DNA of 27,759 nt, from contig DASPJR010000027.1 of NCBI GenBank assembly GCA_035628505.1, positions 1-27,759 of the forward strand. The letters run 5' to 3'. This document shows positions 5,841 through 27,686 of this stretch, piece after piece. The stretch's first letter is position 1; every line of letters starts with the position of its first letter. A program made the position numbers and the translations under genes. The notes beneath the pieces are model-generated. The model did not search any database. It was not told the DNA's origin and saw only the letters and a program-made list of their open reading frames with translations. This stretch comes from Planctomycetota bacterium. GTDB taxonomy: Bacteria; Planctomycetota; SZUA-567; H5-PLA8.

Positions 5841-6497
5841 GTGGCGGGAGGCGTCAAAGGTCTGGCGGCAGAGACCACAGCCGGCGCCGGTTCAAACGGC
5901 GGCGCGCCCGTGAACTGGCGCGCGCTGGACGAAGGCCGCCTGCTCAGCGCGATGGCCGAGGGCCACTCCGGCGCCTTCGACGAACTCTTCTCGCGCCACA
6001 GCGGCGCGGTGCTCGCTTTTCTCTCGCGGCTTACGACAACCAAGTGCGATCCCGAAGATCTTCTGCAGGAAACATTTTTACGCGTGCTGACGCATGCCCG
6101 GGATTTCCGGCCCGGCGCGGCGTTCCGGCCGTGGCTCTTCACGATTGCCCGTAACGTCGCATACAATTCCCTGCAGAAACGAAAACTTCGCGCTGAAGTG
6201 GAAGTGCAGACCGATTTCCGCAGCCCGGCCGTGCCGCCTTCAGTCCATGCATCCTCGGCCATGAGCGCCAGCAGCGACCCCAGCGCACGTATGCAATCCC
6301 AGGAACAGAAAACGAAGCTGCTGAAGGCCCTGGAAGAACTGCCGGACGCGCAGCGCGAAATTCTCGTGCTCATCGTTTTCGACAACTTTTCGTATGAGGA
6401 AGCCGCTGCCATAACAGGTGACAGCGAAGGAACGCTGCGCTCGCGCGTGTTCCATGCACTGAAAAAATTACGCGACCGTTTGAAGGAGCCAGTGTAA
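5841..6497 (+). CDS. ECF (sigma-70 family, group 4) RNA polymerase sigma factor. The start could instead be the downstream Met at 5952.
   Basis: Region 2: DLLQETFLRVLTHARDFRPGAAFRPWLFTIARNVAYN. Region 4: LPDAQREILVLIVFDNFSYEEAAAITGDSEGTLRSRVFHALKKLR. Confidence 0.8.
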   Translation: MAGGVKGLAAETTAGAGSNGGAPVNWRALDEGRLLSAMAEGHSGAFDELFSRHSGAVLAFLSRLTTTKCDPEDLLQETFLRVLTHARDFRPGAAFRPWLFTIARNVAYNSLQKRKLRAEVEVQTDFRSPAVPPSVHASSAMSASSDPSARMQSQEQKTKLLKALEELPDAQREILVLIVFDNFSYEEAAAITGDSEGTLRSRVFHALKKLRDRLKEPV

Positions 6498-8643: not shown

Positions 8644-8688
8644 ATTCGTTGTGTCTTCGAGTCTTCGTGTTGAAGAAAGACGCCGCAA

Positions 8689-9582
8689 ATGCCTGAAGCC
8701 CGCGAACTGATTGACGACCGTGCCATGCAGCGCATCAGCAAGCTGCGTCTGGTGGCGCGCACCGTCGTTCAAAGCTTCATCTCCGGCCAGCACCGCAGCG
8801 TCTACAAGGGCTTCAGCGTCGAATTCGCGCAGCATCGCCAGTACGTGCGCGGCGACGAACTGCGCCACATCGACTGGAAAGTCTTCGCCAAAAGCGACCG
8901 CATCTTCGTCAAGCAGTACGAAGAAGAAACAAATCTGCGCGCCACAATCGTTCTCGATGCCAGCGGAAGCATGCTCTATAAGGGTGCAGGCGAGCAGAAA
9001 TTCGAGTACGCGCGCAAGCTCGCCGCTGCGTTGAGCTACCTGATGGTCGGCCAGTGCGACTCGGCCGGGTTGGTCACGTTCGACACCGAGGTCCGCTCGC
9101 ACATTCCCGCGCGCTCCACCAGTGGCCATCTCAACACGCTGCTGAACGTGCTCTCTGAAACCGAGCCGCGCGGCGAAACGAACCTGGCGCCGATCCTGCA
9201 GAACCTCAGTGCGCAGCTCAAGCGCCGCGGACTGGTGATCATTCTTTCTGATTTCTTCGCGCCGGTCGAAGAACTCACCAAGGCTCTGGGCCATTTTCAC
9301 CACAAGCGCCATGAAGTGATCCTGTTTCAGATCCTCGATCCGAACGAAGTCACGTTCCCGTTCGACAATGTCGCCGAGTTCCGCAGCCTCGAGAACAGCA
9401 ATATCAAGCTGCGCCTCGACGCGCCGCGCGTGCGCAAGCTGTACCTGGAACGGCTCGAAAAATTCACGCAGAAGCTTCGCGAGTCCTGCCACCGCTTTCA
9501 TTACGACCACGTCATGCTGCAGACCGACAGCCCGTATGACGCCGCGCTCAGCCACTATCTCATGAAGAGGCACGAGCGATGA
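8689..9582 (+). CDS. DUF58-family protein (vWA-like), the usual MoxR partner.
   Basis: YKGFSVEFAQHRQYVRGDELRHIDWKVFAKSDRIFVKQYEEE is the DUF58 signature. Sits 45 nt after moxR. Confidence 0.85.
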   Translation: MPEARELIDDRAMQRISKLRLVARTVVQSFISGQHRSVYKGFSVEFAQHRQYVRGDELRHIDWKVFAKSDRIFVKQYEEETNLRATIVLDASGSMLYKGAGEQKFEYARKLAAALSYLMVGQCDSAGLVTFDTEVRSHIPARSTSGHLNTLLNVLSETEPRGETNLAPILQNLSAQLKRRGLVIILSDFFAPVEELTKALGHFHHKRHEVILFQILDPNEVTFPFDNVAEFRSLENSNIKLRLDAPRVRKLYLERLEKFTQKLRESCHRFHYDHVMLQTDSPYDAALSHYLMKRHER

Positions 9583-9608
9583 ACCCGCGCGCGCGAGGAA
9601 ACAGCTGA

Positions 9609-11831
9609 ATGGTATTCCTCAACCTCCTGCTCGCCGGCGGTCTGCTCGCTGTCAGCGCGCCGATCATCATCCACCTGCTGCACCGCAGCAAGGTGATGCC
9701 CTACGACTGGGGCGCGATGATGTTCCTGGAAGAGCTCATGGCCGAGCGCGCGCGGCGGCTGCGCATGCAGGAGATCCTGCTGCTGATCGTGCGCGCGCTG
9801 ATCGTTGCCTGTCTCGCCTTCGCACTGATGCGCCCTGCAATCAAGTCGCCGACCGCCGGCGTGCGCTCAGCCGATACGCACACCAGCGCCGTCGTTTTGC
9901 TGGACGATTCCTACTCCATGAACACCGGACACAACCGCAAAGCCTGGCAGGACGCCTGCGACGCGGCGATTAAGTACATCGGCACGCTGCAGAGCGGCGA
10001 TGACGTCTCGGTGATGTTCACCTCGTCGGCCGGAAAAGTTCCGCCGCCCGCAGCGCTGTACGATCACGAACGCGCGCGCGAAATCATCCGCAAGGCCACG
10101 CCACAATACGATAAGACAGATATTCCGCGCGCGCTCTCCGCCGCGCTGCAGCAGCTCGACAGCCAGCACAATCCGCGCCGCGAACTGGTCCTGTTTACCG
10201 ACATGCAGGCCAGCGGATGGGAACTGGCCGACGGCGCGCGCTGGTCGTTCATTGCTGGAACAGTGCGCTCGGCGCGCGTGCGGCCGAACATTATTCTCGC
10301 GGCCACGCCCGAGCTCAAACCGAACAACCTGGCGCTGCTGAAAATCGAACCCTCGCGGCAGGTTGTAGACAGCTTCACGCCCGTCACGTTCAACGTCACG
10401 GTCGCGAATGAAAGCCCCGAGGCCATGCGCGACGCAACGGTAACGTTCATCGTCGACAACGTCGCCAAAGCCACGCGTTCCGTCAAACTCGATCCGGGCG
10501 GACGCGAAGTCGTTGCCTTCGAACATAAATTTGAGCGGCCGGGCTCGCATTATGTCGCCTGCCGCGCACGTTCCTCACAGGACATGCTGGAAGACGATAA
10601 CGAGCTCAATCACAGCGTTGTGGTGATCGACCGCTTGCCGGTGCTGCTCGTCGACGGCGACAAGAAAGACAGGCCGCTGGGCAGCGAGACCGATTTTCTG
10701 CGGCTGGCTCTTTCGCCGCGAGACCGTGACGATCCCAACTGGCGCACCGTTATTGATACTACCGTGATCGACAGCACCGACCTGCGCTATACCGATCTTT
10801 CGAAATTCCGCGTCGTCGTGCTGGCCAATGTCGCTGCACTGCCTGCGGCCGCCGTTTCAGAAATTGAACGCTTTGTCGTCGCGGGCGGCGGTCTGATGAT
10901 CGCGCTCGGCAATAATATACGGCCTGATGCTTACAACCGTGATCTGTTCCGGCAGGGAGCGGGGCTGCTTCCGGTTGCACTGAAGCGGATTGAAGGGGCA
11001 ACGCTGCAGAATGAAAGCTCCGGCGCCGTGCGCCTGGTCGCAGCGGGTTCGTCCGCGCCAAAGCCGGCGCAGCAGGGCCCCGATCCCGTGCATCTGGCCA
11101 GCATCGTCTCCAACGCGCCGGCACTCGATCTCTTCCGCCCGGAAAAGGGGCAGGACTGGTCGCGCGCGCGCGTGCGCAGCTATTTCTCTGTCGCGGCGCC
11201 CGGTGACGGCGTTCGCGCGCTTGCCGCATTTTCGAATGGCGATCCGGTGCTGCTGCAGAAGCGCCTGGGCGAGGGCCGCGTGCTGCTCTTTACCTCGGCG
11301 ATAGACATGGACTGGTCAGATCTGCCCATTCACCCCTTCTATGTGCCGCTCATGCAGAATCTCGTCTTTGATCTGGCTTCTGCCGTTATCCCGCCGCGCA
11401 ATGTTCCCGTCGGGCAAACCATCGCCTACGTCGCCACGGGGCCGAATGCGCTCAAGCCGCACATCCTGATTCCGCCGGGCGGCGAACCGATCACGCTGAA
11501 GACGCAGCGCCAGGGGCAGCTTTCGATCTTCACGCACGAAAACACAAAGACGCCCGGGCTTTACTCGATTGCTCCCGAAGGCGCGCCGCCGGACGAGCGT
11601 GTGTTTTACACCGTGACGGCTGACCGTTCGGACTCCGTGCTCGACCGTCTTGAGCGCGAAGACACCGAAAAACTAGAGCGCGATCTGGGCGCGCACATCG
11701 CCTCGGACTGGAGCGCCATGGCGAGGCTGCTGATGCTGGACGCCGGGAGCTTTGAAATCTCGAAGTATCTATTGATGGCGGCAATCGTCTTCTGCTTCGT
11801 TGAAATCTGGCTCACGCGGAGGTGGGCATGA
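9609..11831 (+). CDS. BatA-like membrane protein: N-terminal double-TM BatA_N domain, vWA domain, GATase1-like/DUF4159-like domain and a C-terminal TM.
   Basis: MVFLNLLLAGGLLAVSAPIIIHLLHRSK is the BatA N-terminal motif. vWA MIDAS motif VVLLDDSYSMN. VVVLANVAALP...FVVAGGGLMIALGN resembles a class-I amidotransferase-like fold. SD gagga upstream. Confidence 0.8.
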   Translation: MVFLNLLLAGGLLAVSAPIIIHLLHRSKVMPYDWGAMMFLEELMAERARRLRMQEILLLIVRALIVACLAFALMRPAIKSPTAGVRSADTHTSAVVLLDDSYSMNTGHNRKAWQDACDAAIKYIGTLQSGDDVSVMFTSSAGKVPPPAALYDHERAREIIRKATPQYDKTDIPRALSAALQQLDSQHNPRRELVLFTDMQASGWELADGARWSFIAGTVRSARVRPNIILAATPELKPNNLALLKIEPSRQVVDSFTPVTFNVTVANESPEAMRDATVTFIVDNVAKATRSVKLDPGGREVVAFEHKFERPGSHYVACRARSSQDMLEDDNELNHSVVVIDRLPVLLVDGDKKDRPLGSETDFLRLALSPRDRDDPNWRTVIDTTVIDSTDLRYTDLSKFRVVVLANVAALPAAAVSEIERFVVAGGGLMIALGNNIRPDAYNRDLFRQGAGLLPVALKRIEGATLQNESSGAVRLVAAGSSAPKPAQQGPDPVHLASIVSNAPALDLFRPEKGQDWSRARVRSYFSVAAPGDGVRALAAFSNGDPVLLQKRLGEGRVLLFTSAIDMDWSDLPIHPFYVPLMQNLVFDLASAVIPPRNVPVGQTIAYVATGPNALKPHILIPPGGEPITLKTQRQGQLSIFTHENTKTPGLYSIAPEGAPPDERVFYTVTADRSDSVLDRLEREDTEKLERDLGAHIASDWSAMARLLMLDAGSFEISKYLLMAAIVFCFVEIWLTRRWA

Positions 11832-14632
11832 GCGACTCAACGGTGGGCAATGCCGTCAACCTTGTCCTGACCGGCTACGCCTGGTGGCTGATGATTCCCG
11901 CATCGGCCGTGCTTGGCGTGCTGATCGCTCGGCTTTACATGAAGGAGACAGAAGGCTTCGGCAACGGCGGAATGTGGCTGCGCATGCTGCGTGCGGCCGT
12001 GGTGGTGATCCTGGTGTTGCTGCTCTCGCAACCTATTATTCACCGTGTGACAGCGCTGCACGAACCGCCTGTCGTGATCGTGCTGCGCGACCAGTCGACG
12101 AGCATGAGCGTCAAAGATACGCACGAGCCGATCGAGAAGAAAGTTCGCGCCGCAGTGGTGCTTGGCCTGCTCGATGGCAAACTTCGCGATCTTAATGCCG
12201 AGAACGCCGTGACATCCCTGACGTCGGCACTCACAGCGCTCGAGTCCGCAACAGGGGGCGTGCGGCAGGCAATGCAGCAGCTGCAGGAAAGCGGCGAAAG
12301 TTCAGCGGGCATCCAGGAGCGCCTGACGCAGGCGCGAAAGTACCTTTCCACTCTTGCTGCCGAATCGCGCAAGGCCGCCGATCTTCTCGCAGCGGCGCCG
12401 CTGGTTCAGCCGCATCAGAAACCCGCCGCCCTGAAAGCCGCCGAAATGGCCGCGGCTCTGGACAAGGACCTGAGCGAGGTTCCGCTGAAAAATGCGGACG
12501 CGCGCAAGTTCCTCATGGATAAGAGCCAGTCGCTTAAAGCACTCAAGCAGGATCTCACCCGCGTCACCGCCGATGCGCGCAAGCTGCAGGATCGCGTCGA
12601 TCGGGCGCTGGGCGAAAGCGGCAAGCAGCCGGTCAAGACTGCCATTGAAGCGATCGATAAGATGGACCGCATCACCTTCACGACGGCCATTCTGGACAAG
12701 TCCACGACGGAGCTTGGCGGCGAGCAGGCCCGGATCGTCAGCTACAATATTGATACGGATCTGCGCAGCCCGGACGGAAAATTTCTCGAACGCGAACCGG
12801 ACAAGAACGAGAGCAAGGACGCGAAGCCTGAAAAGCGCACCGACGCGCGCCAGACGCGCGCAGATACGGACCTCGCAACGCCGCTGCTTCGCCTGCTTGA
12901 AAAACACGCGCACGACACGGTCACATCTATTGTCCTCTGCAGCGACGGCCGCCACACCAGCGGACCGGCGCCAGAAGACGCCGCACGCGCCATCGCGGCG
13001 CGCGGCATCACCCTGCACTCGCTGGGAGTTGGCAGCACGGAAGCGCCGCCGGATATCTGCGTCGCACGCCTGGACGGCACGCTCTCGGTGTTCCTTGAAG
13101 AAACCATTCGCCTCACCGCGCAGATCAAATGCACGGGCTTGAAGAATCAGAAGTGTAAGCTCGCGCTGAAGTCGGGCGACAAAACGATCCAGGAACGCGT
13201 GCTCGCCATCGGTTCTGACGGCTGGCTCACCGAAACATTTGAGCTCACCGCAACGAAGAGCGGGCCCAATGCGTTCACGGCATCGATTGAACCACTGCCG
13301 GGCGAGGCGCTCACGACAAACAACAGCGCCGATGCCGTTGTCGATGTCGCCAACGACCGGCTGAAAGTCCTGGTTGTCGATGAACTTCCGCGCTGGGAAA
13401 CGCGTTATGTCGCCAGCCTCCTGCGCCGCGAGCGCAAAATGGAACTGAAAGAACGCTGGCTGATCAGCGGCGACGGAATGGGCCCACGGCCAAAGGCTCT
13501 GCCGGAAGAACAGAAAGGACTGGAAGAATACGACATCATTGTGCTGGGCGACGTAATGGCAGAACGGCTCGACGATGCCGCGCAGAAGCGCCTCGCGCGC
13601 TATGTCGCGGACAACGGCGGCTTTTTGGTCGTCATCGCCGGAAATAAAGCCATGCCGCGCGCGTACCCAAGTGGTCCGCTCGCCGATCTGCTGCCGATCA
13701 AGCAGCAACTCACGACCGGCGCTGCGGCAATGCTGACAGCCGATGCCACCGCCGGCGCGCGCGTGAAACTCGACGCGGACGGCAGCCGCAGCGAGATCGT
13801 ACGCGTTCTGCGTGATCCGGCGCTGAACGAGCAGCTCTGGCCGGCGCTTCCGGAACTGACCTGGATTGCGCGGCCCGCTTTCGCAAAGCCAGGCGCGACG
13901 ACGCTCCTTTATGCCGACGACGCGCGAAAGGATGCGGTCGTCGCCGTGCACAGCTACGGCGCGGGGCGTGTGCTTTATATCGGATCGGACAACACCTGGC
14001 GCTGGCGCTATAAAGTTGGCGACCGCGTGCACGCTGTCTTCTGGTCGCAGGCAATGCGCTGGGGTACCAGCAACCGCCTGACCGGCAATCCGCGGCTGAA
14101 AGTCGGGCTCGACCGCCGCCAGATCCGCCCCGGAGAGAACCTCGAAGTAATTGCGCGGCCGCGCGACAGGGCGGGCGCAGCCGTCGCCAATGCATTGGTC
14201 ATTGCCGAGCTCGAAGACCGCACGCGCCAGCAGCACGTTCAGCTTCAGCCGGTGGCCGACAGCGGCGGGCTGTACCGCGGTGTGCTGCAGAACATCGGCG
14301 CCGGCGTGCACTCGATCAAGATCAAAGTTCAGTCCCCCGACTTCGAAGGCATCGAAGAAACCCTGCAGGTCATTTCGCGCGAAGTGACCGGCCAGGAAGG
14401 CGTGGAACTTTCACGGGATACGGCGCGGCTCGCATCCCTGGCGCAGGCCGGCTCCGGCCGCAGCCTTGATATCCTGGAAGCGCGTCAGCTCTTCAAAGAA
14501 CTCGCCGGCCAGGGAAAGATCCGCACGGTCGAGTCCTCTTACGAACTATGGTCGTCGTACTGGGCGCTGCTGCTCGTGGTGGCGCTGCTGGCTGCCGAGT
14601 GGCTCCTGCGCAAAAAGATGGGCATGGCCTGA
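11828..14632 (+). CDS. Second BatA_N-type membrane protein (BatB-like). N-terminal double TM, a long coiled/extended region, a vWA-like segment (IVLCSDGRHTSG) and a GATase1-like domain (YDIIVLGDV...GGFLVVIAGN).
   Basis: ATG at 11828 overlaps the upstream stop (ATGA). SD ggaggtgg at 11816-11823. 935 aa. Confidence 0.7.
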   Translation: MSDSTVGNAVNLVLTGYAWWLMIPASAVLGVLIARLYMKETEGFGNGGMWLRMLRAAVVVILVLLLSQPIIHRVTALHEPPVVIVLRDQSTSMSVKDTHEPIEKKVRAAVVLGLLDGKLRDLNAENAVTSLTSALTALESATGGVRQAMQQLQESGESSAGIQERLTQARKYLSTLAAESRKAADLLAAAPLVQPHQKPAALKAAEMAAALDKDLSEVPLKNADARKFLMDKSQSLKALKQDLTRVTADARKLQDRVDRALGESGKQPVKTAIEAIDKMDRITFTTAILDKSTTELGGEQARIVSYNIDTDLRSPDGKFLEREPDKNESKDAKPEKRTDARQTRADTDLATPLLRLLEKHAHDTVTSIVLCSDGRHTSGPAPEDAARAIAARGITLHSLGVGSTEAPPDICVARLDGTLSVFLEETIRLTAQIKCTGLKNQKCKLALKSGDKTIQERVLAIGSDGWLTETFELTATKSGPNAFTASIEPLPGEALTTNNSADAVVDVANDRLKVLVVDELPRWETRYVASLLRRERKMELKERWLISGDGMGPRPKALPEEQKGLEEYDIIVLGDVMAERLDDAAQKRLARYVADNGGFLVVIAGNKAMPRAYPSGPLADLLPIKQQLTTGAAAMLTADATAGARVKLDADGSRSEIVRVLRDPALNEQLWPALPELTWIARPAFAKPGATTLLYADDARKDAVVAVHSYGAGRVLYIGSDNTWRWRYKVGDRVHAVFWSQAMRWGTSNRLTGNPRLKVGLDRRQIRPGENLEVIARPRDRAGAAVANALVIAELEDRTRQQHVQLQPVADSGGLYRGVLQNIGAGVHSIKIKVQSPDFEGIEETLQVISREVTGQEGVELSRDTARLASLAQAGSGRSLDILEARQLFKELAGQGKIRTVESSYELWSSYWALLLVVALLAAEWLLRKKMGMA

Positions 14633-22089: not shown

Positions 22090-22339
22090 ACACAGTTAGT
22101 TAGGAGAGTAGCAATTCGATGAACTGGGTCATGGCACAAATAAGCGGACATACACAGTACCTGTCCTATGCGGATCAGCGGACGGGTATCGTCGTATCGT
22201 TTAGTTTGCCGTGCCTCGGTCGTAAAGCTGAAAACAATCTGAACGCCCCCGAGACCGGGAGGCCCGCACCCTAGAAGGTTGAGTTCATGTGGAGATTCCA
22301 CAAACCTTCCAGGGTGCAAGCTCTGGAAGGTTTTTTTTT
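22090..22339 (+). ncRNA. Candidate small RNA of about 250 nt with unassigned family. Relatively AT-rich and ends at an intrinsic terminator.
   Basis: No ORF of at least 60 aa on the plus strand here (track minimum). Bounded by a promoter-like site and by terminator ccttccag-ggtgcaagct-ctggaagg followed by T8 (22304-22339). GC content is visibly lower than the flanking DNA. Confidence 0.4.
22304..22339 (+). terminator. Rho-independent terminator. 8-bp GC-rich stem CCTTCCAG/CTGGAAGG, a 10-nt loop, then TTTTTTTT.
   Basis: Perfect inverted repeat 22305-22312 / 22323-22330, followed by a T8 run at 22331-22338. Confidence 0.75.
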
Positions 22340-22500
22340 ACCCGAGCGAAAAGGAGTTCAACATGCAGGTACGTGCTGACTAAACAGTAGTTCCTGATTT
22401 CGACTCGCGATGAAACGTGAAAACGCAGCGACTGGCGTTGCCGCGAGAGGAGTGTTGTTGTCACTTTTCTAAGGAGGTTCATGCAGTCGCCGTTCGGTTT

Positions 22501-22574
22501 GCGGATGTAGCTCAGTGGCAGAGTACGAGCATGCCAAGCTCGAGACGCGGGTCCGATTCCCGCCTTCCGCACCA
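22501..22574 (+). tRNA. tRNA-Gly(GCC). CCA is encoded. T-loop TCCGATT is non-canonical (C55).
   Basis: Cloverleaf: acceptor GCGGATG/CTTCCGC, D-arm GCTC-AGTGGCA-GAGT, anticodon arm CGAGC-aTGCCAa-GCTCG. Confidence 0.7.
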
Positions 22575-22634
22575 AGCTCAGCTTCACTCACCGGGGAGAC
22601 GCGGAGGCGCTGAGAACAGATTGGAAAAGTTCGG

Positions 22635-22705
22635 GCCGCGGTGTGAGGGTCACGCGCCTCTCCCGTAAAGAGGCTGAGCAGGTTCAACTCCTGCCTGCGG
22701 CTCCA
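22635..22705 (+). pseudogene. Degenerate tRNA-like element related to Cys, with a truncated D-arm. Has acceptor GCCGCGG/CTGCGGC, discriminator U, CCA and T-arm GCAGG-TTCAACT-CCTGC.
   Basis: Anticodon-like hairpin CCTCT-CCCGTAA-AGAGG has C33. The D region is only 15 nt. Its 3' end, CTGCGGC-T-CCA, mirrors that of the Cys tRNA at 25014. Confidence 0.35.
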
Positions 22706-22712
22706 AACAGAT

Positions 22713-22740
22713 GTGACGGGTGACGGGTGGCGGGTAACGA
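22713..22740. repeat. Tandem heptamer repeat, GTGACGG family x4.
   Basis: gtgacgg gtgacgg gtggcgg gtaacga. The same family recurs at 26109-26142. Confidence 0.7.
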
Positions 22741-22777
22741 CACCCAGACTCAAGACTCCCGACTCATGACTATTGTT

Positions 22778-22848
22778 TGCGGTGTCGCGTAATGGTAGCG
22801 CGCCTGCCTGTTAAGCAGGAAGTAGAGGTTCGAATCCTCTCTCCGCAG
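22778..22848 (+). tRNA. tRNA-Asn(GTT).
   Basis: U1-A72 acceptor TGCGGTG/CTCCGCA, discriminator G73. Anticodon arm CCTGC-cTGTTAa-GCAGG. T-arm AGAGG-TTCGAAT-CCTCT. Confidence 0.65.
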
Positions 22849-22856
22849 TGTGAAGT

Positions 22857-22931
22857 GGGGCGATGGTGAAATCAGGATCATACGACGTTCGCATCGTCGC
22901 GTCCCGGGTGCAACTCCCGGTCGCTCCACCA
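22857..22931 (+). tRNA. tRNA-Ala(CGC)-like. Has G3:U70, A73 and CCA, but a non-canonical T-loop TGCAACT (G55) and an unusual D-arm. Possibly non-functional.
   Basis: Acceptor GGGGCGA/TCGCTCC. Anticodon arm CGACG-tTCGCAt-CGTCG. T-arm CCGGG-TGCAACT-CCCGG. Total 75 nt. Confidence 0.45.
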
Positions 22932-22940
22932 GAGAAAAAC

Positions 22941-23013
22941 GCCTTCGAGGTGTTAGCGGCAGCACAGCGGGTTCTTACCCCGTGAGGTGGAGGTTCAAGT
23001 CCTCCCGGAGGCA
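22941..23013 (+). tRNA. tRNA-Lys(CTT).
   Basis: Acceptor GCCTTCG/CGGAGGC, discriminator A73. D-arm GTGT-TAGCGGCA-GCAC. Anticodon arm GCGGG-tTCTTAc-CCCGT. T-arm GGAGG-TTCAAGT-CCTCC. Confidence 0.7.
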
Positions 23014-23021
23014 TGGAAGGC

Positions 23022-23093
23022 AGCTCTTAGCTCTTGGCTGTTGGCTCTTGGAGTTGCGTTGCAATGTCTGTTCCAAGAGCCAAGAGCTAAGAG
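23022..23093. repeat. Hairpin built from GGCTCTT-family heptamers.
   Basis: 5' arm gctcttagctcttggctgttggctcttgga, an 18-nt loop, 3' arm tccaagagccaagagctaagagc. Confidence 0.7.
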
Positions 23094-23111
23094 CCTAGAG
23101 CCGCAACAGCC

Positions 23112-23184
23112 GCGTTCGTAGCTCGAGCGGCAGAGCAGCCGCCTTTTAAGCGGCAGGGTGTGGGTTCGAGCCCCACCGGACGCA
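23112..23184 (+). tRNA. tRNA-Lys(TTT).
   Basis: Acceptor GCGTTCG/CGGACGC, discriminator A73. D-arm GCTC-GAGCGGCA-GAGC. Anticodon arm GCCGC-cTTTTAa-GCGGC. T-arm GTGGG-TTCGAGC-CCCAC. Confidence 0.8.
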
Positions 23185-23190
23185 TGAAGA

Positions 23191-23261
23191 TGCCGGGTCG
23201 TCCAGCGGCAGGACGCCTGACTCTGAATCAGGAAAGCGAGGTTCGAATCCTTGCCCGGCAA
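23191..23261 (+). tRNA. tRNA-Gln(CTG).
   Basis: U1-A72 acceptor TGCCGGG/CCCGGCA, as in bacterial Gln. D-arm GTCC-AGCGGCA-GGAC. Anticodon arm CCTGA-cTCTGAa-TCAGG. T-arm CGAGG-TTCGAAT-CCTTG. Confidence 0.75.
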
Positions 23262-23282
23262 TGGAAGGGCCAGTAGGCGGAA

Positions 23283-23372
23283 GGCAGTGGGCAGGAGGCA
23301 GTGGGCAGGGAACAAAAGAAGACTGAGTGGACGGTGCAGAACGCTGAGCCTCACTCCTGGCTCAGTTTTCCG
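23283..23372. repeat. GGCAGTG/GGCAGGA heptamer tandem at 23283-23310, followed by a terminator-like hairpin GCTGAGCC-tcactcct-GGCTCAGT plus TTTT at 23344-23372.
   Basis: ggcagtgggcaggaggcagtgggcaggg, then gctgagcctcactcctggctcagtttt. Confidence 0.5.
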
Positions 23373-23398
23373 TACTGCTCATTCAGAGGGAACGCAGG

Positions 23399-23469
23399 TG
23401 GCCTGTCGTCCAATGGGAGGACGGCGGACTTTGAATCCGCCTATCGAGGTTCGAATCCTCGCGGGCCAG
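23399..23469 (+). tRNA. tRNA-Gln(TTG).
   Basis: U1-A72 acceptor TGGCCTG/CGGGCCA, discriminator G73. D-arm GTCC-AATGGGA-GGAC. Anticodon arm GCGGA-cTTTGAa-TCCGC. T-arm CGAGG-TTCGAAT-CCTCG. Confidence 0.8.
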
Positions 23470-23517
23470 TAACGCGCGTTGCGAACTCGCGGGGGCAGTG
23501 CTGACGGAGAGCGACAG

Positions 23518-24072
23518 ATGAAAACGCCATTTTTAATTGGAGATCGCATCTGCCTGCGGCCGCTGGAGCGCGAGGACGCGCGCGTGCTGGAGTTTTACAT
23601 CAACGATCCGGATGTCACACGCACGCTGCAGGCATACCGCCCGATGAATCTGCAGATCGAGGAAGACTGGATCGCGGATCTCTACAAGAAGGAAAGCGAC
23701 ATCGTGCTCGGTATCGCGATCAAGAGCAGCGACAAGCTGATCGGTGCGACCGGTCTGCATCGACTGGAATTCAAAGACAGGCGCGCGGAGTTCGGAATCA
23801 GCATCGGCGCGAAGGAAGAGTGGGACAAAGGTTACGGCACCGAGGCCACGCGGCTAATCGTCGGCTACGGCTTCGAGACGCTGAACCTCAACAGGATCAG
23901 CTTGCGCGTGTACGAGCACAATCCTCGAGCGCAGCGCGCGTACGAGAAGGCAGGCTTCAAAAAGGAAGGCGTGCTGCGCAAGGAAGTCTACAGGCTCGGC
24001 CGCTATTGGGACACGATCGTGATGGGCATATTGCGCGAGGAATGGGACGCCCTCGCGGCAAGCAAGAAGTGA
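23518..24072 (+). CDS. GNAT N-acetyltransferase of the RimJ/RimL-like (Acetyltransf_3) family, embedded in the tRNA array.
   Basis: 184 aa. WDKGYGTEATRLIVGYGFETLNLNRISLRVYEHNPRAQRAYEKAGFKKEGVLRKE matches the RimJ/L core. SD ggaga sits 8 nt before ATG 23518. Confidence 0.8.
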   Translation: MKTPFLIGDRICLRPLEREDARVLEFYINDPDVTRTLQAYRPMNLQIEEDWIADLYKKESDIVLGIAIKSSDKLIGATGLHRLEFKDRRAEFGISIGAKEEWDKGYGTEATRLIVGYGFETLNLNRISLRVYEHNPRAQRAYEKAGFKKEGVLRKEVYRLGRYWDTIVMGILREEWDALAASKK

Positions 24073-24076
24073 GGAC

Positions 24077-24107
24077 GTGGGGCAGCGCGAACGAACGCCT
24101 GCCCCAC
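24077..24107 (+). terminator. GC-rich stem-loop immediately after the GNAT stop codon. No U-tract follows, so it may be a terminator or a processing hairpin.
   Basis: gtggggcag-cgcgaacgaacgc-ctgccccac. Confidence 0.35.
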
Positions 24108-24119
24108 GCAGGGCGCGAG

Positions 24120-24190
24120 CGGGCGTTAGTGCCGGTGGCACTGGCGAGTCTTATAAACCCGCTGGCCGGGTTCAACTCCCGGGCGCCCGA
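24120..24190 (+). pseudogene. Degenerate tRNA-like element. Acceptor CGGGCGT/GCGCCCG, T-arm CCGGG-TTCAACT-CCCGG, a tight GTGC-CGGTG-GCAC D hairpin and an anticodon-like loop CTTATAA with a mismatched stem.
   Basis: Manual fold; the D-arm and anticodon stem are irregular. Its T-arm is closely related to that of the Ala-like tRNA at 22857. Confidence 0.3.
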
Positions 24191-24202
24191 CTGAACTGAT
24201 GA

Positions 24203-24274
24203 GCCGGGATGGCGTAGGGGTCTGCGCGTCCGCCTGAAGAGCGGAAGGTGATCGTTCGACTCGATCTTCCGGCA
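24203..24274 (+). tRNA. tRNA-Phe(GAA).
   Basis: Acceptor GCCGGGA/TTCCGGC, discriminator A73. Anticodon arm TCCGC-cTGAAGa-GCGGA. T-arm GATCG-TTCGACT-CGATC. Confidence 0.75.
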
Positions 24275-24284
24275 TGTGAACGAC

Positions 24285-24365
24285 GGTTTCTGGTTTGAAG
24301 TTTCTGGTCTCTGGCTAATTGCAGCTTGCACTGAACCAGAAACTAGAAACCAGAAACCTGAAACC
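24285..24365. repeat. Hairpin built from CCAGAAA/GGTTTCT heptamers.
   Basis: 5' arm ggtttctggtttgaagtttctggtctctgg. 3' arm ccagaaactagaaaccagaaacctgaaacc. Confidence 0.75.
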
Positions 24366-24373
24366 GAATTTAA

Positions 24374-24446
24374 CGGGGCGTAGCGTAGCGGCTAACGCGC
24401 CTGCGTCGGAAGCAGGAGAACGTCGGTTCGAATCCGGCCGCTCCGA
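24374..24446 (+). tRNA. tRNA-Pro(CGG).
   Basis: C1-G72 acceptor CGGGGCG/CGCTCCG, discriminator A73, as expected for Pro. D-arm GCGT-AGCGGCTA-ACGC. Anticodon arm CCTGC-gTCGGAa-GCAGG. T-arm GTCGG-TTCGAAT-CCGGC. Confidence 0.75.
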
Positions 24447-24460
24447 TGGGAGAACGACGG

Positions 24461-24547
24461 CTTCTGGTTTGAGGTTTCTAGTTTCTAGTTAACTGCTGAT
24501 CGCGCGAAACCAGAAACAGGAAACCAGAAACCAGAAACAGAGGTTTG
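24461..24547. repeat. Hairpin built from CCAGAAA/GGTTTCT heptamers.
   Basis: 5' arm cttctggtttgaggtttctagtttctagtt. 3' arm gaaaccagaaacaggaaaccagaaaccagaaacag. Confidence 0.75.
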
Positions 24548-24622
24548 CGGGACGTAGCTCAGCTTGTTGAGAGCGCCTGGTTTGGAACCAGGAGGTCGCA
24601 GGTTCAAATCCTGCCGTTCCGA
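24548..24622 (+). tRNA. tRNA-Pro(TGG).
   Basis: C1-G72 acceptor CGGGACG/CGTTCCG, discriminator A73. D-arm GCTC-AGCTTGTTGA-GAGC. Anticodon arm CCTGG-tTTGGAa-CCAGG. T-arm GCAGG-TTCAAAT-CCTGC. Confidence 0.8.
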
Positions 24623-24670
24623 TTATGCAAAAACGTCAGCAGCAACCGACAGCGGCTGAGGTGAACTGGA

Positions 24671-24745
24671 CGGACGGTGTTGTAGGGGGCTGCAGATCTG
24701 CCTGATAAGCAGAAGGTGGAGGTTGGACTCCTCCCCGTCCGACCA
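24671..24745 (+). tRNA. tRNA-Ile(GAT)-like. CCA is encoded. Unusual C1-G72 acceptor and a non-canonical T-loop TTGGACT (G56).
   Basis: Acceptor CGGACGG/CCGTCCG. Anticodon arm TCTGC-cTGATAa-GCAGA. T-arm GGAGG-TTGGACT-CCTCC. Confidence 0.55.
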
Positions 24746-24760
24746 GAAAGGAGCGAAGAC

Positions 24761-24832
24761 GTCTCTGTCAGCTAGTGGCAAGCTACCGCGCTTTCAACGC
24801 GGCAACCGTGGGTTCGATTCCCCGTAGAGACA
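24761..24832 (+). tRNA. tRNA-Glu(TTC). T-stem is imperfect (GTGGG/CCCCG).
   Basis: Acceptor GTCTCTG/TAGAGAC. D-arm AGCT-AGTGGCA-AGCT. Anticodon arm CCGCG-cTTTCAa-CGCGG. T-loop TTCGATT. Confidence 0.6.
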
Positions 24833-24833
24833 T

Positions 24834-24907
24834 GTGTCCTGGGTGTGACGATTGCACGCGAGAATGTGAGTCTCGTAGAGCCGGTTTGACTCCGGCAGGA
24901 CACCCCA
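24834..24907 (+). tRNA. tRNA-His(GTG). CCA is encoded and the discriminator is C73. Starts 1 nt after tRNA-Glu. The -1 position is T, so G-1 is not encoded.
   Basis: Acceptor GTGTCCT/AGGACAC. D-arm GTGT-GACGATT-GCAC. Anticodon arm CGAGA-aTGTGAg-TCTCG. T-arm GCCGG-TTTGACT-CCGGC (non-canonical T56). Confidence 0.6.
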
Positions 24908-24913
24908 AAGGTG

Positions 24914-25001
24914 TGGTTTCTGGTTTCGAGTTTCTGGTTTCTGGTTTCTGGTTAAGGGCCGATTGCACTGAACCAGAAACCAGAAACTAAGAACCAGAAA
25001 C
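24914..25001. repeat. Hairpin built from CCAGAAA/GGTTTCT heptamers.
   Basis: 5' arm tggtttctggtttcgagtttctggtttctggtttctggtt. 3' arm aaccagaaaccagaaactaagaaccagaaacc. Confidence 0.75.
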
Positions 25002-25013
25002 CGTAGTCAGGAG

Positions 25014-25088
25014 GGCCGCGTGGCCGAGCACATAGGCACCCGCCTGCAGAGCGGGGCAACGCAGGTGAAAATCCTGCCGCGGCCTCCA
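25014..25088 (+). tRNA. tRNA-Cys(GCA). U73 discriminator and encoded CCA. T-loop TGAAAAT is non-canonical.
   Basis: Acceptor GGCCGCG/CGCGGCC. Anticodon arm CCCGC-cTGCAGa-GCGGG. T-arm GCAGG-TGAAAAT-CCTGC. Three-bp D-stem. Confidence 0.6.
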
Positions 25089-25206
25089 GATGTTCTGAGG
25101 TGGGCGATCGCGATCTGGATAGCGCTGTTTGTGGTCAGCATTGTAAGTGCGATTTGCGCGATGTTTTGAGGAAGCGCCCGATGCGAGCAGAGCTCGCATT
25201 CGGGAG

Positions 25207-25285
25207 GGCTGCGTGGCTGAGCAGCGAAGGCAACCGTTGAAATGTCAACGGGAGAGGTTGGGTGCAATTCCCTTCCGCAGCCTCA
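25207..25285 (+). pseudogene. Cys-related tRNA-like pseudogene. The anticodon arm is replaced by a 7-bp stem with a tetraloop.
   Basis: Acceptor GGCTGCG/CGCAGCC, then U and CA. Same D-region as the Cys tRNA (GCTG-AGCAGCGA-AGGC). Hairpin CCGTTGA-aatg-TCAACGG is not a 7-nt anticodon loop. T-arm is degenerate. Confidence 0.35.
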
Positions 25286-25294
25286 GCCGAAAAT

Positions 25295-25368
25295 GCTCTC
25301 GAAGGCGAAGCAGTGGAGCCGCCACTCTGTCGAAGTGGATGAAGCCGGTGCGACTCCGGCCGGGAGCG
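25295..25368 (+). tRNA. tRNA-Asp(GTC). Discriminator G73. T-loop TGCGACT is non-canonical (G55).
   Basis: Acceptor GCTCTCG/CGGGAGC. Anticodon arm CCACT-cTGTCGa-AGTGG. T-arm GCCGG-TGCGACT-CCGGC. Confidence 0.55.
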
Positions 25369-25373
25369 TGAAA

Positions 25374-25437
25374 CGATTGCGGATTGCGAATTTCGGATTG
25401 CGGATTGGCTTTCAATCCCAAATCCGCAATCCGAAAT
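25374..25437. repeat. Hairpin built from CGGATTG/CAATCCG heptamers.
   Basis: 5' arm gattgcggattgcgaatttcggattgcggattgg. 3' arm cccaaatccgcaatccgaaat. Confidence 0.7.
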
Positions 25438-25442
25438 AAAGA

Positions 25443-25515
25443 AGCGGGTGGCTAGGCCTGGGGGTCTGGCGGGTCTCATAAGCCTGCAATGGCGGTTCGA
25501 TTCCGCTGCCCGCAA
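25443..25515 (+). tRNA. tRNA-Met(CAT) candidate. Has a 1:72 mismatch, an A73 discriminator and an initiator-like D-loop (GCCTGG), but the D-stem is irregular.
   Basis: Anticodon arm CGGGT-cTCATAa-GCCTG. T-arm GGCGG-TTCGATT-CCGCT. 3' end GCCCGCA-A resembles the bacterial initiator 3' end. Confidence 0.4.
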
Positions 25516-25523
25516 TGGGAATG

Positions 25524-25596
25524 GGTTTCTAGTTTCTGGTTTCTCGTTTCTGGTTCAGTGCAGTCGCCGTTAACCAGAAACCAGAAACCAGAAACC
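25524..25596. repeat. Hairpin built from CCAGAAA/GGTTTCT heptamers.
   Basis: 5' arm ggtttctagtttctggtttctcgtttctggtt. 3' arm aaccagaaaccagaaaccagaaacc. Confidence 0.75.
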
Positions 25597-25704
25597 GCAG
25601 TTTAGAGAGGCTGAGCTGCCGGGGCCAGCGGCGCCCGGGACCTTGCGTGAGCAATCGGTCTCGTGTGTTCCGAACATGGCATGTGACGAAGGCGGCGACG
25701 CGAG

Positions 25705-25781
25705 CGCCATATAGCTCATCTGGATAGAGCATCGGTCGAAAGAACCGACGGTAGTGGGTTCGACTCCCACTATGGCTACCA
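25705..25781 (+). tRNA. tRNA-like gene with canonical D- and T-arms and an encoded CCA, but a non-canonical anticodon loop CGAAAGA (G33; formal anticodon AAA) and a C1:U72 mismatch. Identity is unresolved and it may be a pseudogene.
   Basis: D-arm GCTC-ATCTGGATA-GAGC. Anticodon stem TCGGT/ACCGA. T-arm GTGGG-TTCGACT-CCCAC. 3' end TATGGCT-A-CCA. Confidence 0.4.
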
Positions 25782-25829: not shown

Positions 25830-26108
25830 TGTTAAGCGGATCGAGGCTGAAGGGGGGCGAGAGTTGCGACTGACCGGCTGACGCGAAGTGCTCAGATAGA
25901 TTTCACGCAGCAGCACGAGAGGGCGCTTTGCAGCGCGCGGATTCGCTGAGGAACAAACCGCCGGACGCCCGGCGAACTCGACGGCTGGCCTGTACTGGAG
26001 CCGCACGAGGACGCCGCCGCCGAACGCGGGAGTAGCCGCAGCTCAAGTATCGCTCCGCGCCCGACGTGTGGACAGCACAGCAACTCGCCTCCTGGATGCC
26101 ATTACTGC

Positions 26109-26142
26109 TGTGACGGGTGACGAGTGGCGGGTGACGGGTGGC
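26109..26142. repeat. Tandem heptamer repeat, GTGACGG family x5.
   Basis: gtgacgg gtgacga gtggcgg gtgacgg gtggc. Confidence 0.7.
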
Positions 26143-26344: not shown

Positions 26345-27454
26345 ATGATGGCTATGCGCAAGTTCAAGATCGGCACGCACGAACGCGGCCTGCTGTTCGA
26401 AGAAAACGAGTTCAAGGTGATGCTCGACCCGGGCCGCCACTGGTTCTTCGATCCGCTGTGGAAGCTTCGCGTGGACAAGGTCTCTGTCCGCGAGGCGCAG
26501 CTTCGCCACAAGGACCTGGACGTCATCGTGAAGTCCGGCGCGCTGAAGGACGTGGCGAAGGTCGTCGACCTGAAGGATCACGAACGCGCGGTGGTGTGGG
26601 TTGACGGCCGCGTGGAAACGGTTCTGAAGCAGGGCCTGTACGCCTTCTGGACGGTCTTCCACGACGTCCGCGTGGAAGTCTTCGACGCGCGCGAAGTCCG
26701 CTTCGAGCACGCCGAGCTTCCGGCGATCCTGCAGGCGCGCGACGCCGGCACGCCGCTTGACGTCTACACGGTTGAGGTCGGCTACACGGGCCTCTTCTTC
26801 AAGGACGGCGAGTTCAAGTCGGCGCTGAAGCCGGGCACGCATGCGTTCTGGAAGGGCGTCAACCGCGTGCGCATCCACAACGTGGATCTGCGCGAGCAGG
26901 TCTGCGACGTGGCGGGCCAGGAAATCGTGACGGCCGACAAGGTCACGCTGCGCCTGAACGCCGTCGTGACGTACCGCGTAGCGGACGCGCTGAAGGCGGT
27001 GACGACGGTGGATGACTACAAGCAGGCGCTGTACCGCGAGGCGCAGCTTGCTCTGCGCGCGGTGGTCGGTACCCGCGAGCTCGACACGCTGCTGAGCGAG
27101 AAGGACAGTGTGGCGAAGGAGCTGGAAGGCCTGCTGAAGAACCGCGCGACGGCGTTCGGCGTGGAAGTGAACACGCTGGGCATCAAGGACATCATCCTGC
27201 CGGGCGAGATGAAGGACTTGATGAACAAGGTGACGGAAGCGAAGAAGGCTGCTGAAGCCACGCTCATCACGCGCCGCGAAGAAACGGCCGCGATGCGCAT
27301 GCAGGCCAACACGGCCAAGATCCTCGAGAACAACCCGACGCTCATGCGCCTGCGTGAGCTCGAAGTGCTCGAGAAGATCTCGGAAAAGTCGAACCTGAAG
27401 GTTGTGCTCGGCGACCAGAAGGGTCTCGTCGACCGTGTGGTGAAGGTGCTGTAA
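26345..27454 (+). CDS. SPFH/band-7 (stomatin/prohibitin/flotillin-like) domain protein.
   Basis: 369 aa. SPFH core ...VTADKVTLRLNAVVTYRVADALKAVTTVDDYKQALYREAQLALRAVVGTRELDTLLSEKDSVAKELEG... SD ggaggggagga before ATG 26345. The longer upstream ORF extension, which runs through the REP element, was rejected. Confidence 0.8.
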   Translation: MMAMRKFKIGTHERGLLFEENEFKVMLDPGRHWFFDPLWKLRVDKVSVREAQLRHKDLDVIVKSGALKDVAKVVDLKDHERAVVWVDGRVETVLKQGLYAFWTVFHDVRVEVFDAREVRFEHAELPAILQARDAGTPLDVYTVEVGYTGLFFKDGEFKSALKPGTHAFWKGVNRVRIHNVDLREQVCDVAGQEIVTADKVTLRLNAVVTYRVADALKAVTTVDDYKQALYREAQLALRAVVGTRELDTLLSEKDSVAKELEGLLKNRATAFGVEVNTLGIKDIILPGEMKDLMNKVTEAKKAAEATLITRREETAAMRMQANTAKILENNPTLMRLRELEVLEKISEKSNLKVVLGDQKGLVDRVVKVL

Positions 27455-27561: not shown

Positions 27562-27647
27562 GCTCTCGTGGCGGAATTTTTGGAAGACGCGGCCGGCTCA
27601 AACCCGGCAGGCCCTGGGCCGTGGAGGTTCGAATCCTCTCGAGAGCA
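27562..27647 (+). tRNA. tRNA-Leu(CAA), type II with a long variable arm.
   Basis: Acceptor GCTCTCG/CGAGAGC, discriminator A73. D-region GTGGCGGAATTTTTGGAAGACGCG is Leu-like. Anticodon arm GCCGG-cTCAAAc-CCGGC. Variable hairpin GGCCC-tg-GGGCC. T-arm GGAGG-TTCGAAT-CCTCT. Confidence 0.8.
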
Positions 27648-27650
27648 TGG

Positions 27651-27686
27651 TGTTGGCTCTTGGCTCTTGGCTCTTGGCTCTTGGAG
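27651..27686. repeat. Tandem GGCTCTT heptamer x4-5 immediately 3' of tRNA-Leu. Same module as after tRNA-Lys(CTT) at 23036-23053.
   Basis: tgttggctcttggctcttggctcttggctcttggag. Confidence 0.8.

Follow-up and report, generated by a model that had tools for sequence, protein, structure and literature searches.

Why does a gene for a GNAT-family N-acetyltransferase lie in the middle of a bacterial tRNA gene array, and does its product act on the tRNAs around it? The question is raised by a 27,759-nt stretch of Planctomycetota DNA (GenBank assembly GCA_035628505.1, contig DASPJR010000027.1, forward strand), referred to below as the window, in which the GNAT coding sequence occupies positions 23518 to 24072 of the plus strand. 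A sequence-only reading of the window had suggested that the enzyme, judged closest to RimJ/RimL, modifies the array tRNAs or counters a tRNA-directed activity, with a passenger role left open. The comparisons described here favor, with moderate confidence, the view that the GNAT is cargo of great age, carried by a long, partly degenerate planctomycete tRNA array that can do without it, and that it is expressed from the tRNA precursor.

The GNAT gene and its slot in planctomycete tRNA arrays

The coding sequence is intact, opens with ATG, ends with TGA and encodes a 184-amino-acid SpeG-like member of Pfam Acetyltransf_3. The Pfam profile search that the sequence-only reading had recommended gave a full-length match to this family (PF13302; E 1.8e-28, 100.4 bits against a cut-off of 25.4), with protein residues 10-148 aligned to profile positions 1-138. 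More than 2,100 homologues were found in the databases, and one entry, identical throughout, comes from a 30,264-nt contig assigned to a Planctomycetota metagenome-assembled genome. The Pfam match and the number of homologues rule out a chance open reading frame (ORF), despite the many spurious ORFs in this 61% GC sequence. The homologues begin with MK(T/N)PFLIG and the window protein with MKTPFLIG, which places the start at the ATG at 23518 and not at the upstream TTG at 23479. The sequence GGAGA (23506-23510, plus strand), 7-8 nt ahead of the ATG, represents a Shine-Dalgarno site, and one was found at the same place in relatives (AAGGAG in locus L087, AAGGAAAG in L178). The gene is flanked by same-strand tRNA genes for Gln(UUG) (23399-23469) and an Ile(UAU)-like tRNA (24120-24191). 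A genuine GNAT gene with its own ribosome-binding site within a same-strand tRNA array, as first proposed, was thereby confirmed.

For comparison, the contigs of the closest GNATs, together with homologues of the slipin (SPFH/Band_7) gene downstream of the GNAT, were scanned for tRNAs. The scan revealed a module shared among Planctomycetota, consisting of a 5' tRNA block ending in Gln(UUG), the GNAT slot, a second tRNA block that usually opens with Ile(UAU), the slipin gene, Leu/Arg tRNAs and an HNH endonuclease gene. The window reads Gly Thr Asn (Ala) Lys Lys Gln Gln(UUG), GNAT, Ile(UAU) Phe Pro Pro Ile Glu (His) Cys Met Phe, slipin, (Leu). The order in L091/L172 is Gln(UUG), GNAT, Ile(UAU) Phe Pro Pro Ile Cys Met Val Arg, slipin, five Leu and two Arg; in L087-L089, ten tRNAs ending in Gln(UUG) Gly(UCC) precede GNAT, Ile(UAU) Pro Ile His Cys Phe Met Val and slipin. 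In L178, which lies on a 2.6-Mb contig, 12 tRNAs ending in Gln(UUG) are followed by GNAT, 12 tRNAs opening with Ile(GAU) His Cys, slipin, six tRNAs, HNH and Ser. The GNAT occupies the same slot in these four array lineages, with slipin 3' of it in all four, and two reduced loci, L174 (Asn, GNAT, Lys Lys, slipin) and L083 (GNAT, Ile(AAU), slipin), keep the GNAT, tRNA and slipin together. Co-inheritance with the array, which the sequence-only reading had assumed, is real and old.

The slipins of the four array lineages are only 61-81% identical. Identities to the window proteins (GNAT/slipin) were 76/81% in L172 (over 120 aligned amino acids), 69/74% in L087/L088, 70/70% in L083 and 60/62% in L178; the GNATs of L091/L172 were 70-76% identical, the slipin match in L091 being a 60% N-terminal fragment only. 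GNAT and slipin have diverged in parallel.

Retention of the GNAT was divided among homologous arrays. Beside the four lineages and two reduced loci that keep it, no GNAT was found anywhere in L173 (30 tRNAs) or L181 (34 tRNAs), which share the same order with slipin and HNH and in which Ile(UAU) follows Gln(UUG) after 40 and 31 nt, respectively. It is also missing from L170 (Lys, slipin, eight tRNAs, RtcB). The slipin gene adjoins tRNAs in all nine Planctomycetota loci compared and is the most constant protein partner of the array; Leu tRNAs lie 3' of it in L172, L173, L178 and L181, and HNH comes after the last tRNAs in L173, L178 and L181, a position that the window contig does not reach. 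In a neighbor-joining tree of ten slipin sequences rooted on Acidobacteriota, GNAT-bearing loci stand on the deepest and on the crown branches, interleaved with GNAT-less ones. The simplest reading of this pattern is that the GNAT is ancestral and was lost about three times.

The same losses, and the reduced loci with GNAT, one to three tRNAs and slipin, would also suit a pure hitch-hiker, that is, a housekeeping GNAT without functional relation to the tRNAs, the slipin or stress. In that case tRNAs would have accreted or duplicated around an older pairing of GNAT and slipin, and the GNAT would borrow the transcription of the array. The retention of one slot across deep divergence and the very tight packing speak against it.

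The packing is seen in the distances from the upstream tRNA 3' end to the ATG and from the stop codon to the next tRNA, which are 12 nt (AAGGAGCAGGGC, directly after the tRNA CCA end) and 9 nt in L087, 17 and 5 nt in L178, and 48 and 47 nt in the window. The upstream distance is 30 nt in L091, and the stop codon lies inside tRNA-Ile(UAU) in L091/L172, with a 10-nt overlap. In the window, a scan of the stretch separating the tRNAs from the GNAT turned up neither a sigma-70-like site nor a terminator. Spacers this short leave no room for a promoter of the GNAT's own and suggest that it is co-transcribed with the tRNAs. The GNAT would then be transcribed as part of the tRNA precursor, its message freed by 3' processing of tRNA-Gln(UUG) and by an RNase P cut at the next tRNA, and translation would proceed from its own Shine-Dalgarno site.

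At L091 714-723 and L172 about 382-391, the last two GNAT codons and the TAG stop are inside the tRNA-Ile(UAU) gene; RNase P cleavage would there strip the stop codon from the message. The GC-rich hairpin reported at the end of the window gene is present (24076-24108, plus strand; -28 kcal/mol, z = -2.9, 1 of 200 shuffles as good), but it is not conserved, since it is missing in L087, L091 and L178, where the next tRNA starts 5-9 nt after the stop codon or already contains it. The hairpin lacks a T-run and was not called by the terminator scan, so it is no intrinsic terminator. It is a lineage-specific spacer hairpin, one of many, and not a conserved signal; possibly it guards the mRNA 3' end.

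Mixed transcripts of this kind have a familiar counterpart in Escherichia coli, where thrU-tyrU-glyT-thrT-tufB forms a mixed tRNA-mRNA operon with tufB, the gene for a core translation factor, at its end. There, as proposed here, a coding sequence shares its transcript with tRNAs and is set free when these are processed, whereas the window-type GNAT lies inside the array, with a tRNA 5-48 nt away on either side, and no role of its product in translation is established.

Relatives of the enzyme and its likely acceptor

Homologous loci from reference genomes and metagenomes (160, plus three reached via close homologues, making 163 non-redundant loci) were scanned for tRNAs. A tRNA was present within 1 kb in 5 of 12 loci with at least 65% identity to the window GNAT, in 2 of 26 at 60-65%, 2 of 25 at 55-60%, 1 of 36 at 50-55% and 0 of 64 at 40-50%. 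A family-wide association with tRNAs was ruled out in this set; it is limited to the closest relatives. Aligned matches were 58-72% identical, including proteins whose source names are Gemmataceae, Acetothermia, Rokubacteria and Thermodesulfobacteriota, and identity is still 41-48% in Chloroflexota and Asgard archaea. Acetothermia and Binatia members are 61-63% identical to the window GNAT, compared with 60% for the array-borne copy of L178. The GNAT is not a specialized array-only enzyme.

The neighborhoods in other phyla were considered as a guide to substrate, and only clade-specific housekeeping synteny was found. About 30 Chloroflexota loci share the order B12-binding mutase subunit, MeaB, GNAT, phosphoribosyl pyrophosphate synthetase (Prs) and Fpg; in Binatia and Asgard archaea the GNAT is near PabB-like and luciferase-like genes and a second GNAT. 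The GNAT of L006 stands behind a pair of ordinary tRNAs, amid housekeeping genes such as those for a GDSL lipase, a GATase and IspD. Such unrelated metabolic contexts, the lack of nearby tRNAs at most homologues and the ordinary setting of L006 are again what a hitch-hiker would show. A separate lineage, L161, points the other way, having a GNAT homologue beside three tRNAs and an HNH gene of the array-associated family. We regard pure hitch-hiking as less probable than not.

Anticodon CUA (amber-reading) tRNAs adjoin GNAT homologues at two places, at 7394-7467 (minus strand) of L007, from a Gemmataceae genome, and at 6021-6093 and 6199-6270 (plus strand) of L161, a sediment contig. Those of L161 are accompanied by tRNA-Met and the array-family HNH.

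A mobile origin was also examined. The closest plasmid and phage homologues were 39% and 36% identical, respectively, and IMG/VR gave only four weak matches at no more than 37% identity. The sole cyanobacterial plasmid match among the matches listed (Scytonema, 33%) is in a prophage-like region and not in a tRNA array. The GC content at third codon positions of the GNAT is 0.78, against 0.70-0.80 in adjacent genes, and is host-like, as is that of the slipin; the overall GC content of the GNAT fits the host as well. With distant homologues only and host-like composition, a phage or plasmid origin was ruled out. In the roughly 10 kb covered around each locus, the genes flanking the array differ in every lineage; the array module is old and resident, not a recent import.

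As to the kind of GNAT, all approaches placed SpeG first. The best NCBIfam model was SpeG (NF011709; 71.4 bits, below its cut-off of 218), followed by PseH. A sequence search of the PDB returned SpeG first (3tth, E 5e-21), and a family-profile search of the same database gave 110 bits for SpeG, 93 for AAC(6'), 70 for YdaF, 40-51 for RimJ/L-type chains and 39 for MccE. The AlphaFold model (predicted local distance difference test score 82.9) has the GNAT beta-alpha topology, and all of its top 40 Foldseek matches in the PDB were SpeG. SpeG (PDB 3tth, 4jjx, 3wr7) is thus the best match in sequence, profile and fold, with 28-37% identity, Foldseek E of about 1e-14 and a template modeling score of about 0.75-0.83, and it shares the single-domain size and the Acetyltransf_3 fold. 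Residues W102, G105, Y106, G107 and Y142 were invariant in 26 sequences. The invariant tyrosine of the family motif ...YEKxGF aligns with the conserved tyrosine of the SpeG motif IY(R/K)KxGF, a residue that is catalytic in SpeG.

The likeness has limits, in that the SpeG equivalog score is missed (71 vs 218) and the acidic WFEEPYE segment of SpeG, which we take to be its polyamine-binding or allosteric site, is replaced by xxYRPxN. Judged by sequence, the window GNAT is no SpeG orthologue and belongs to a widespread, strongly conserved SpeG-like branch of Acetyltransf_3. It would transfer acetyl groups from acetyl-CoA to an amine, which may belong to a small molecule or to the N-terminus of a protein, and this acceptor would be the same as that of the family in array-less phyla, not the array tRNAs.

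The sequence-only reading had placed the protein closest to the RimJ/L clade, which is correct at the level of the Pfam family and of COG-style naming but not beyond, given the PDB results. RimJ/RimL and the MccE C-terminal domain share that family and that naming, the basis of many automatic annotations, and many homologues are accordingly named RimJ/RimL or S5-alanine acetyltransferase. On this basis the GNAT could be a RimJ/RimL-type N-terminal acetyltransferase of ribosomal proteins, kept in a tRNA operon for co-expression with the translation apparatus, as tufB is, and operons that combine tRNA and protein genes are known from the phylum, as in its canonical Trp-EF-Thr-Gly-Tyr-Thr cluster (PMC4807772). 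The equivalog models for RimJ (NF008072; 26.5 against a cut-off of 190), RimL (NF007539; 15.7 against 184) and RimI (TIGR01575; 21 against 86.4) all stayed far below their curated cut-offs, however, and solved RimJ/L-type chains rank well below SpeG and AAC(6'). Moreover, the neighbors in other phyla are not ribosomal, and the array is of the degenerate, accessory type and not the canonical cluster. This explanation is quite unlikely.

A second proposal sees the GNAT as a tRNA-directed enzyme that acetylates aminoacyl-tRNA like TacT, AtaT and ItaT, modifies the array tRNAs or neutralizes a tRNA-targeting attack. It draws on the physical embedding of the gene among tRNAs and on the slightly more basic array-borne copies (isoelectric point 7.7-8.9 against a family median of 6.9). 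The toxins share the GNAT fold and the small size; nevertheless, no TacT, AtaT, ItaT or KacT chain was among the 43 sequence and 56 profile matches in the PDB, in agreement with the earlier judgment that the protein is not TacT-like, and none of the PADLOC defense models matched. No antitoxin gene stands next to the GNAT, since tRNAs lie 5-48 nt from both ends in the four lineages with no ORF between and leave no space for one, and the gene belongs to a solitary, widespread family. A TacT/AtaT-like toxin or defense gene was therefore ruled out on the absence of PDB relatives, an antitoxin and a PADLOC match. A TmcA-like enzyme was likewise ruled out, as the single GNAT domain of 184 amino acids contrasts with the helicase/ATPase plus GNAT of about 670 amino acids in TmcA.

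Beyond these resemblances, members of similar identity stand solitary, without arrays, in many phyla including Asgard archaea, and the arrays L173 and L181 exist without the GNAT. Orthologues at tRNA-less loci and arrays lacking the gene were the two findings named in advance as telling against an action on the tRNAs, and both were made. Action on the array tRNAs is thus unlikely, and a tRNA-directed role of any of the three kinds must be considered highly improbable. The sequence-only reading had rightly kept the passenger option open.

A further proposal is a resistance or detoxification enzyme. Such an enzyme would acetylate an amine-bearing translation inhibitor, for example an aminoglycoside or a microcin C-type aminoacyl-nucleotide, or polyamines accumulating when translation stalls; its gene and the spare tRNAs would jointly constitute an antibiotic-tolerance island. 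AAC(6') and SpeG are the top solved relatives, MccE was also detected, and several NCBIfam AAC(6') models matched at E 1e-10 to 1e-7; all of these NCBIfam matches are, however, far below the family cut-offs, and the acidic motif of SpeG is not kept. An Acidobacteriota slipin homologue precedes a 1,041-amino-acid spermine-synthase-domain protein, and PMC8421152 describes the long arrays of Anabaena as induced by translational stress and important for survival. On the other hand, conservation from bacteria to Asgard archaea looks more like core metabolism, and the plasmid and phage homologues are all distant. We consider this explanation unlikely.

Known tRNA arrays and the upstream element

From planctomycetes, Kim et al. 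(2016, PMC4807772) described degenerate tRNA gene clusters, in which 2-28 tRNAs, some of them degraded, are accompanied by one tRNA-Ile(UAU), a tRNA that occurs only there; Planctomycetes also have the canonical Trp-EF-Thr-Gly-Tyr-Thr cluster (PMC4807772, S2 Text). The window array is from the same phylum and likewise has several sub-threshold tRNAs and one Ile(UAU). It differs in that Kim et al. mention no embedded protein genes and in that their Ile(UAU) scored as canonical, whereas that of the window fails the Rfam threshold. A tRNA array unit has been defined as at least 20 tRNA genes at a density of at least 2 per kb (Tran et al. 2015). Within 5.15 kb of the window lie 19-20 tRNA-like genes, at a density of about 3.7-3.9 per kb; beyond the window end, no more than about 2.5 kb of contig is left. 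Relatives are array units by this definition at about 4-5 per kb: L181 with 34 tRNAs in about 5.7 kb, L178 with 31 in about 7.5 kb and L173 with 30 in about 6.0 kb.

Long tRNA arrays (L-arrays) occur in several phyla including Planctomycetes and are linked to an HNH endonuclease and RtcB, according to Santamaria-Gomez et al. (2021, PMC8421152), who also report that translational stress switches on those of Anabaena and that the arrays then contribute to survival. A linked HNH homing-type endonuclease, a criterion for L-arrays, is present in L173, L178 and L181. The HNH of L173 is homologous (34% identity, E 3e-21) to the one abutting the trn operon of 24-26 tRNAs on plasmid delta of Nostoc 7120. 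In Anabaena, the repressor TrcR controls the trn array, the HNH gene all8564, RtcB, the alr0739-alr0740 (slipin) operon and the GNAT genes all0768 and alr1537; all0768 is the most derepressed gene of this regulon, at 322-fold (PMC10272220).

The resemblance to Anabaena PCC 7120 extends to a long same-strand tRNA array with linked or embedded protein genes, a homologous HNH, and the inclusion of RtcB, a slipin and two GNATs in the regulon; RtcB follows the tRNAs in the planctomycete locus L170. The arrangement is different, since the slipin and GNATs of Anabaena are elsewhere on the chromosome and tied by the repressor, whereas those of the planctomycetes are inside the array. HNH is downstream of the array in planctomycetes and upstream in Anabaena, and no TrcR-type regulator was seen at the planctomycete arrays, which have a conserved small ORF and terminator upstream instead. 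Common ancestry of the two array types was ruled out as far as tRNA order is concerned, the orders being unrelated.

The small ORF in the window (22119-22274, plus strand; 51 amino acids) has a Shine-Dalgarno site and an ATG, is called as a gene on the source contig and ends in ...AP-stop within the invariant CACCCTAG. ORFs of 51-54 amino acids with a Shine-Dalgarno site and ATG precede all five arrays that were compared at this point (5/5), the whole element being at 22119-22345 in the window, 1208-1436 in L087, 3978-4202 in L173, 5430-5664 in L178 and 6055-6280 in L181. The peptide is poorly conserved, whereas its length and its end, (A/T)P-stop in the invariant sequence, are kept. It is followed by a variable hairpin and then by a strong intrinsic terminator upstream of the first tRNA (22302-22333 in the window, plus strand; 14-bp stem and T-run), the sequence of which, CCTTCCnGGG...CCnGGAAGG plus T-run, is conserved in all five arrays. 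Because the upstream flanking genes differ in all five loci, the small ORF and terminator belong to the array module. The AGAAGG/AGGAAG at the small-ORF stop repeats the 3' arm of the terminator, and the element may therefore be a leader-peptide attenuator. Lying where the module begins on its 5' side, the small ORF may encode a leader peptide.

Between this element and the first tRNA, a TGTTGTC-like motif was observed in all five arrays, at about 22455-22470 in the window and about 30-60 nt upstream of tRNA-Gly(GCC). TTGTC is common to all five, with CATTGTC in L087 and TTTGTC in L173. The motif may be part of an array promoter or operator.

Wiring of the GNAT into the array transcript would mean that the enzyme is made whenever the array is switched on, which by analogy with the Anabaena regulon would probably be part of a translation-stress response. 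By the same analogy, a looser tie, in which GNAT, slipin, HNH, RtcB and spare tRNAs serve one translational-stress response, is plausible. The presence of the same gene families (array, HNH, slipin, GNAT and RtcB) in one Anabaena regulon also counts against a pure hitch-hiker. In its fullest form, which we put forward only tentatively and hold to be doubtful as a whole, a physically linked translational-stress island would unite the tRNA array with GNAT, slipin and HNH, joined in one relative by RtcB, as the counterpart of the dispersed cyanobacterial TrcR regulon. The GNAT would then be the equivalent of All0768, acetylating a translation-related target or a translation inhibitor, and expression of the island would be controlled by the Pro-stop leader ORF with its terminator, which would serve as a ribosome-sensing attenuator.

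Several points weigh against the reading of the GNAT as an ancient, dispensable cargo expressed from the tRNA precursor and against its link to stress. The case for co-transcription is drawn from spacing, and the slipin tree behind an ancestral and then lost GNAT is a neighbor-joining tree of ten sequences without support values. With the GNAT gone from three of the nine loci that have an array or a slipin, there may be no functional tie at all. No curated NCBIfam family cut-off was reached by the window GNAT, and in the hidden Markov model alignment the acidic WFEEPYE of SpeG falls on a conserved xxYRPxN. As for Anabaena, GNAT and slipin are linked to its regulon by family name only. The gene alr1537, at 1,176 nt, is about twice the length of the window GNAT and of different architecture, and the matches to the 501-amino-acid slipin of L170 included no named protein from cyanobacteria.

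Experimental work on what the widespread long tRNA arrays do has been confined essentially to Anabaena. The placement of a GNAT and a slipin at set positions within such an array appears to be undescribed; here planctomycetes have built families of Anabaena's scattered co-regulated genes into the array itself. Should the proteins prove orthologous, the arrangement would provide independent genomic evidence, across phyla, of a joint function, with GNAT and slipin as the partners to test, and the presence or absence of the GNAT between otherwise collinear arrays provides natural controls. If the link is spurious, the GNAT gene of the window is an ordinary one whose location, though unusual, does no harm.

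Architecture of the window array and neighboring genes

With default settings, ARAGORN detected 16 same-strand tRNA genes at 22501-25781. Three more were found by Rfam only (22857-22928, 25295-25368 and 27562-27647), and one by relaxed ARAGORN with support from synteny. Relaxed calls were kept only with Rfam or synteny support; false positives occurred inside the GNAT ORF and on the opposite strand. The 5' block (22501-23469, plus strand) comprises Gly(GCC), Thr(CGU), Asn(GUU), Ala(CGC)-like, Lys(CUU), Lys(UUU), Gln(CUG) and Gln(UUG), in an order that agrees with L178, L181, L173 and L087; its Ala(CGC)-like member (22857-22928/31, plus strand; Rfam and relaxed ARAGORN) is degenerate. The middle block (24203-25781, plus strand) comprises Phe(GAA), Pro(CGG), Pro(UGG), Ile(GAU), Glu(UUC), His(GUG)-like, Cys(GCA), an Rfam-only tRNA (25295-25368), Met(CAU) and Phe(AAA). 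In this block the His(GUG)-like tRNA (24834-24907, plus strand; relaxed ARAGORN and synteny) is degenerate, and the tRNA-Phe (25705-25781, plus strand; ARAGORN) has an unnatural AAA anticodon. The sub-threshold Ala(CGC)-like and His(GUG)-like copies stand where relatives have intact genes, which suggests that the array is decaying in the window lineage.

The tRNA-Ile(UAU)-like gene (24120-24191, plus strand) was called by ARAGORN, is below the Rfam tRNA threshold and has a non-canonical D-arm. A 5-bp D-stem without the usual D-loop G18-G19 characterizes the Ile(UAU) by the GNAT slot in the window, L087 (3341-3411), L091 (714-784) and L173 (6211-6281). Its cloverleaf is retained with five compensatory pairs across five loci.

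The slipin gene (26345-27454, plus strand) was identified by Pfam and encodes 369 amino acids, as called on the source contig. A class-II, Leu(CAA)-like tRNA lies 3' of it (27562-27647, plus strand; Rfam 48.6 bits, Leu(CAA) in relaxed ARAGORN), so that the array runs on to the window end and slipin is a second embedded protein gene. The GNAT is therefore the only protein gene within 22501-25781, as the sequence-only reading held, but not in the array as a whole, which continues past slipin.

Two slipin homologues of other loci have unusual surroundings or size. In L170 the slipin (8001-9506) has 501 amino acids with a duplicated N-terminal region, a size near that of Anabaena alr0740 (1,527 nt), and is followed by eight tRNAs and RtcB (11878-13386). 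At 10001-14253 of the Acidobacteriota locus L179/L180, a 61% identical slipin homologue has one tRNA-Asn upstream and the 1,041-amino-acid protein with a spermine/spermidine-synthase domain directly 3'. This neighbor is a possible polyamine link to the SpeG-like GNAT.

The spacers between the tRNAs form long imperfect hairpins of short tandem (heptamer) repeats, such as (GGTTTCT)n against (AGAAACC)n and (GCTCTTG)n against its complement. They were found at 22707-22739, 23020-23104, 24285-24365, 24459-24545, 24915-25008, 25524-25602, 26104-26136 and 27655-27685, with the same repeat types on both sides of the GNAT and after slipin. Weak microRNA-like Rfam scores of these hairpins are an artefact.

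Upstream of the array, at 7606-14632, a MoxR AAA ATPase-DUF58-BatA/VWA operon is followed by a gene for a 2,037-amino-acid protein without annotated domains and by one for a secreted squalene-cyclase-repeat protein. These surroundings are an ordinary planctomycete chromosomal context.

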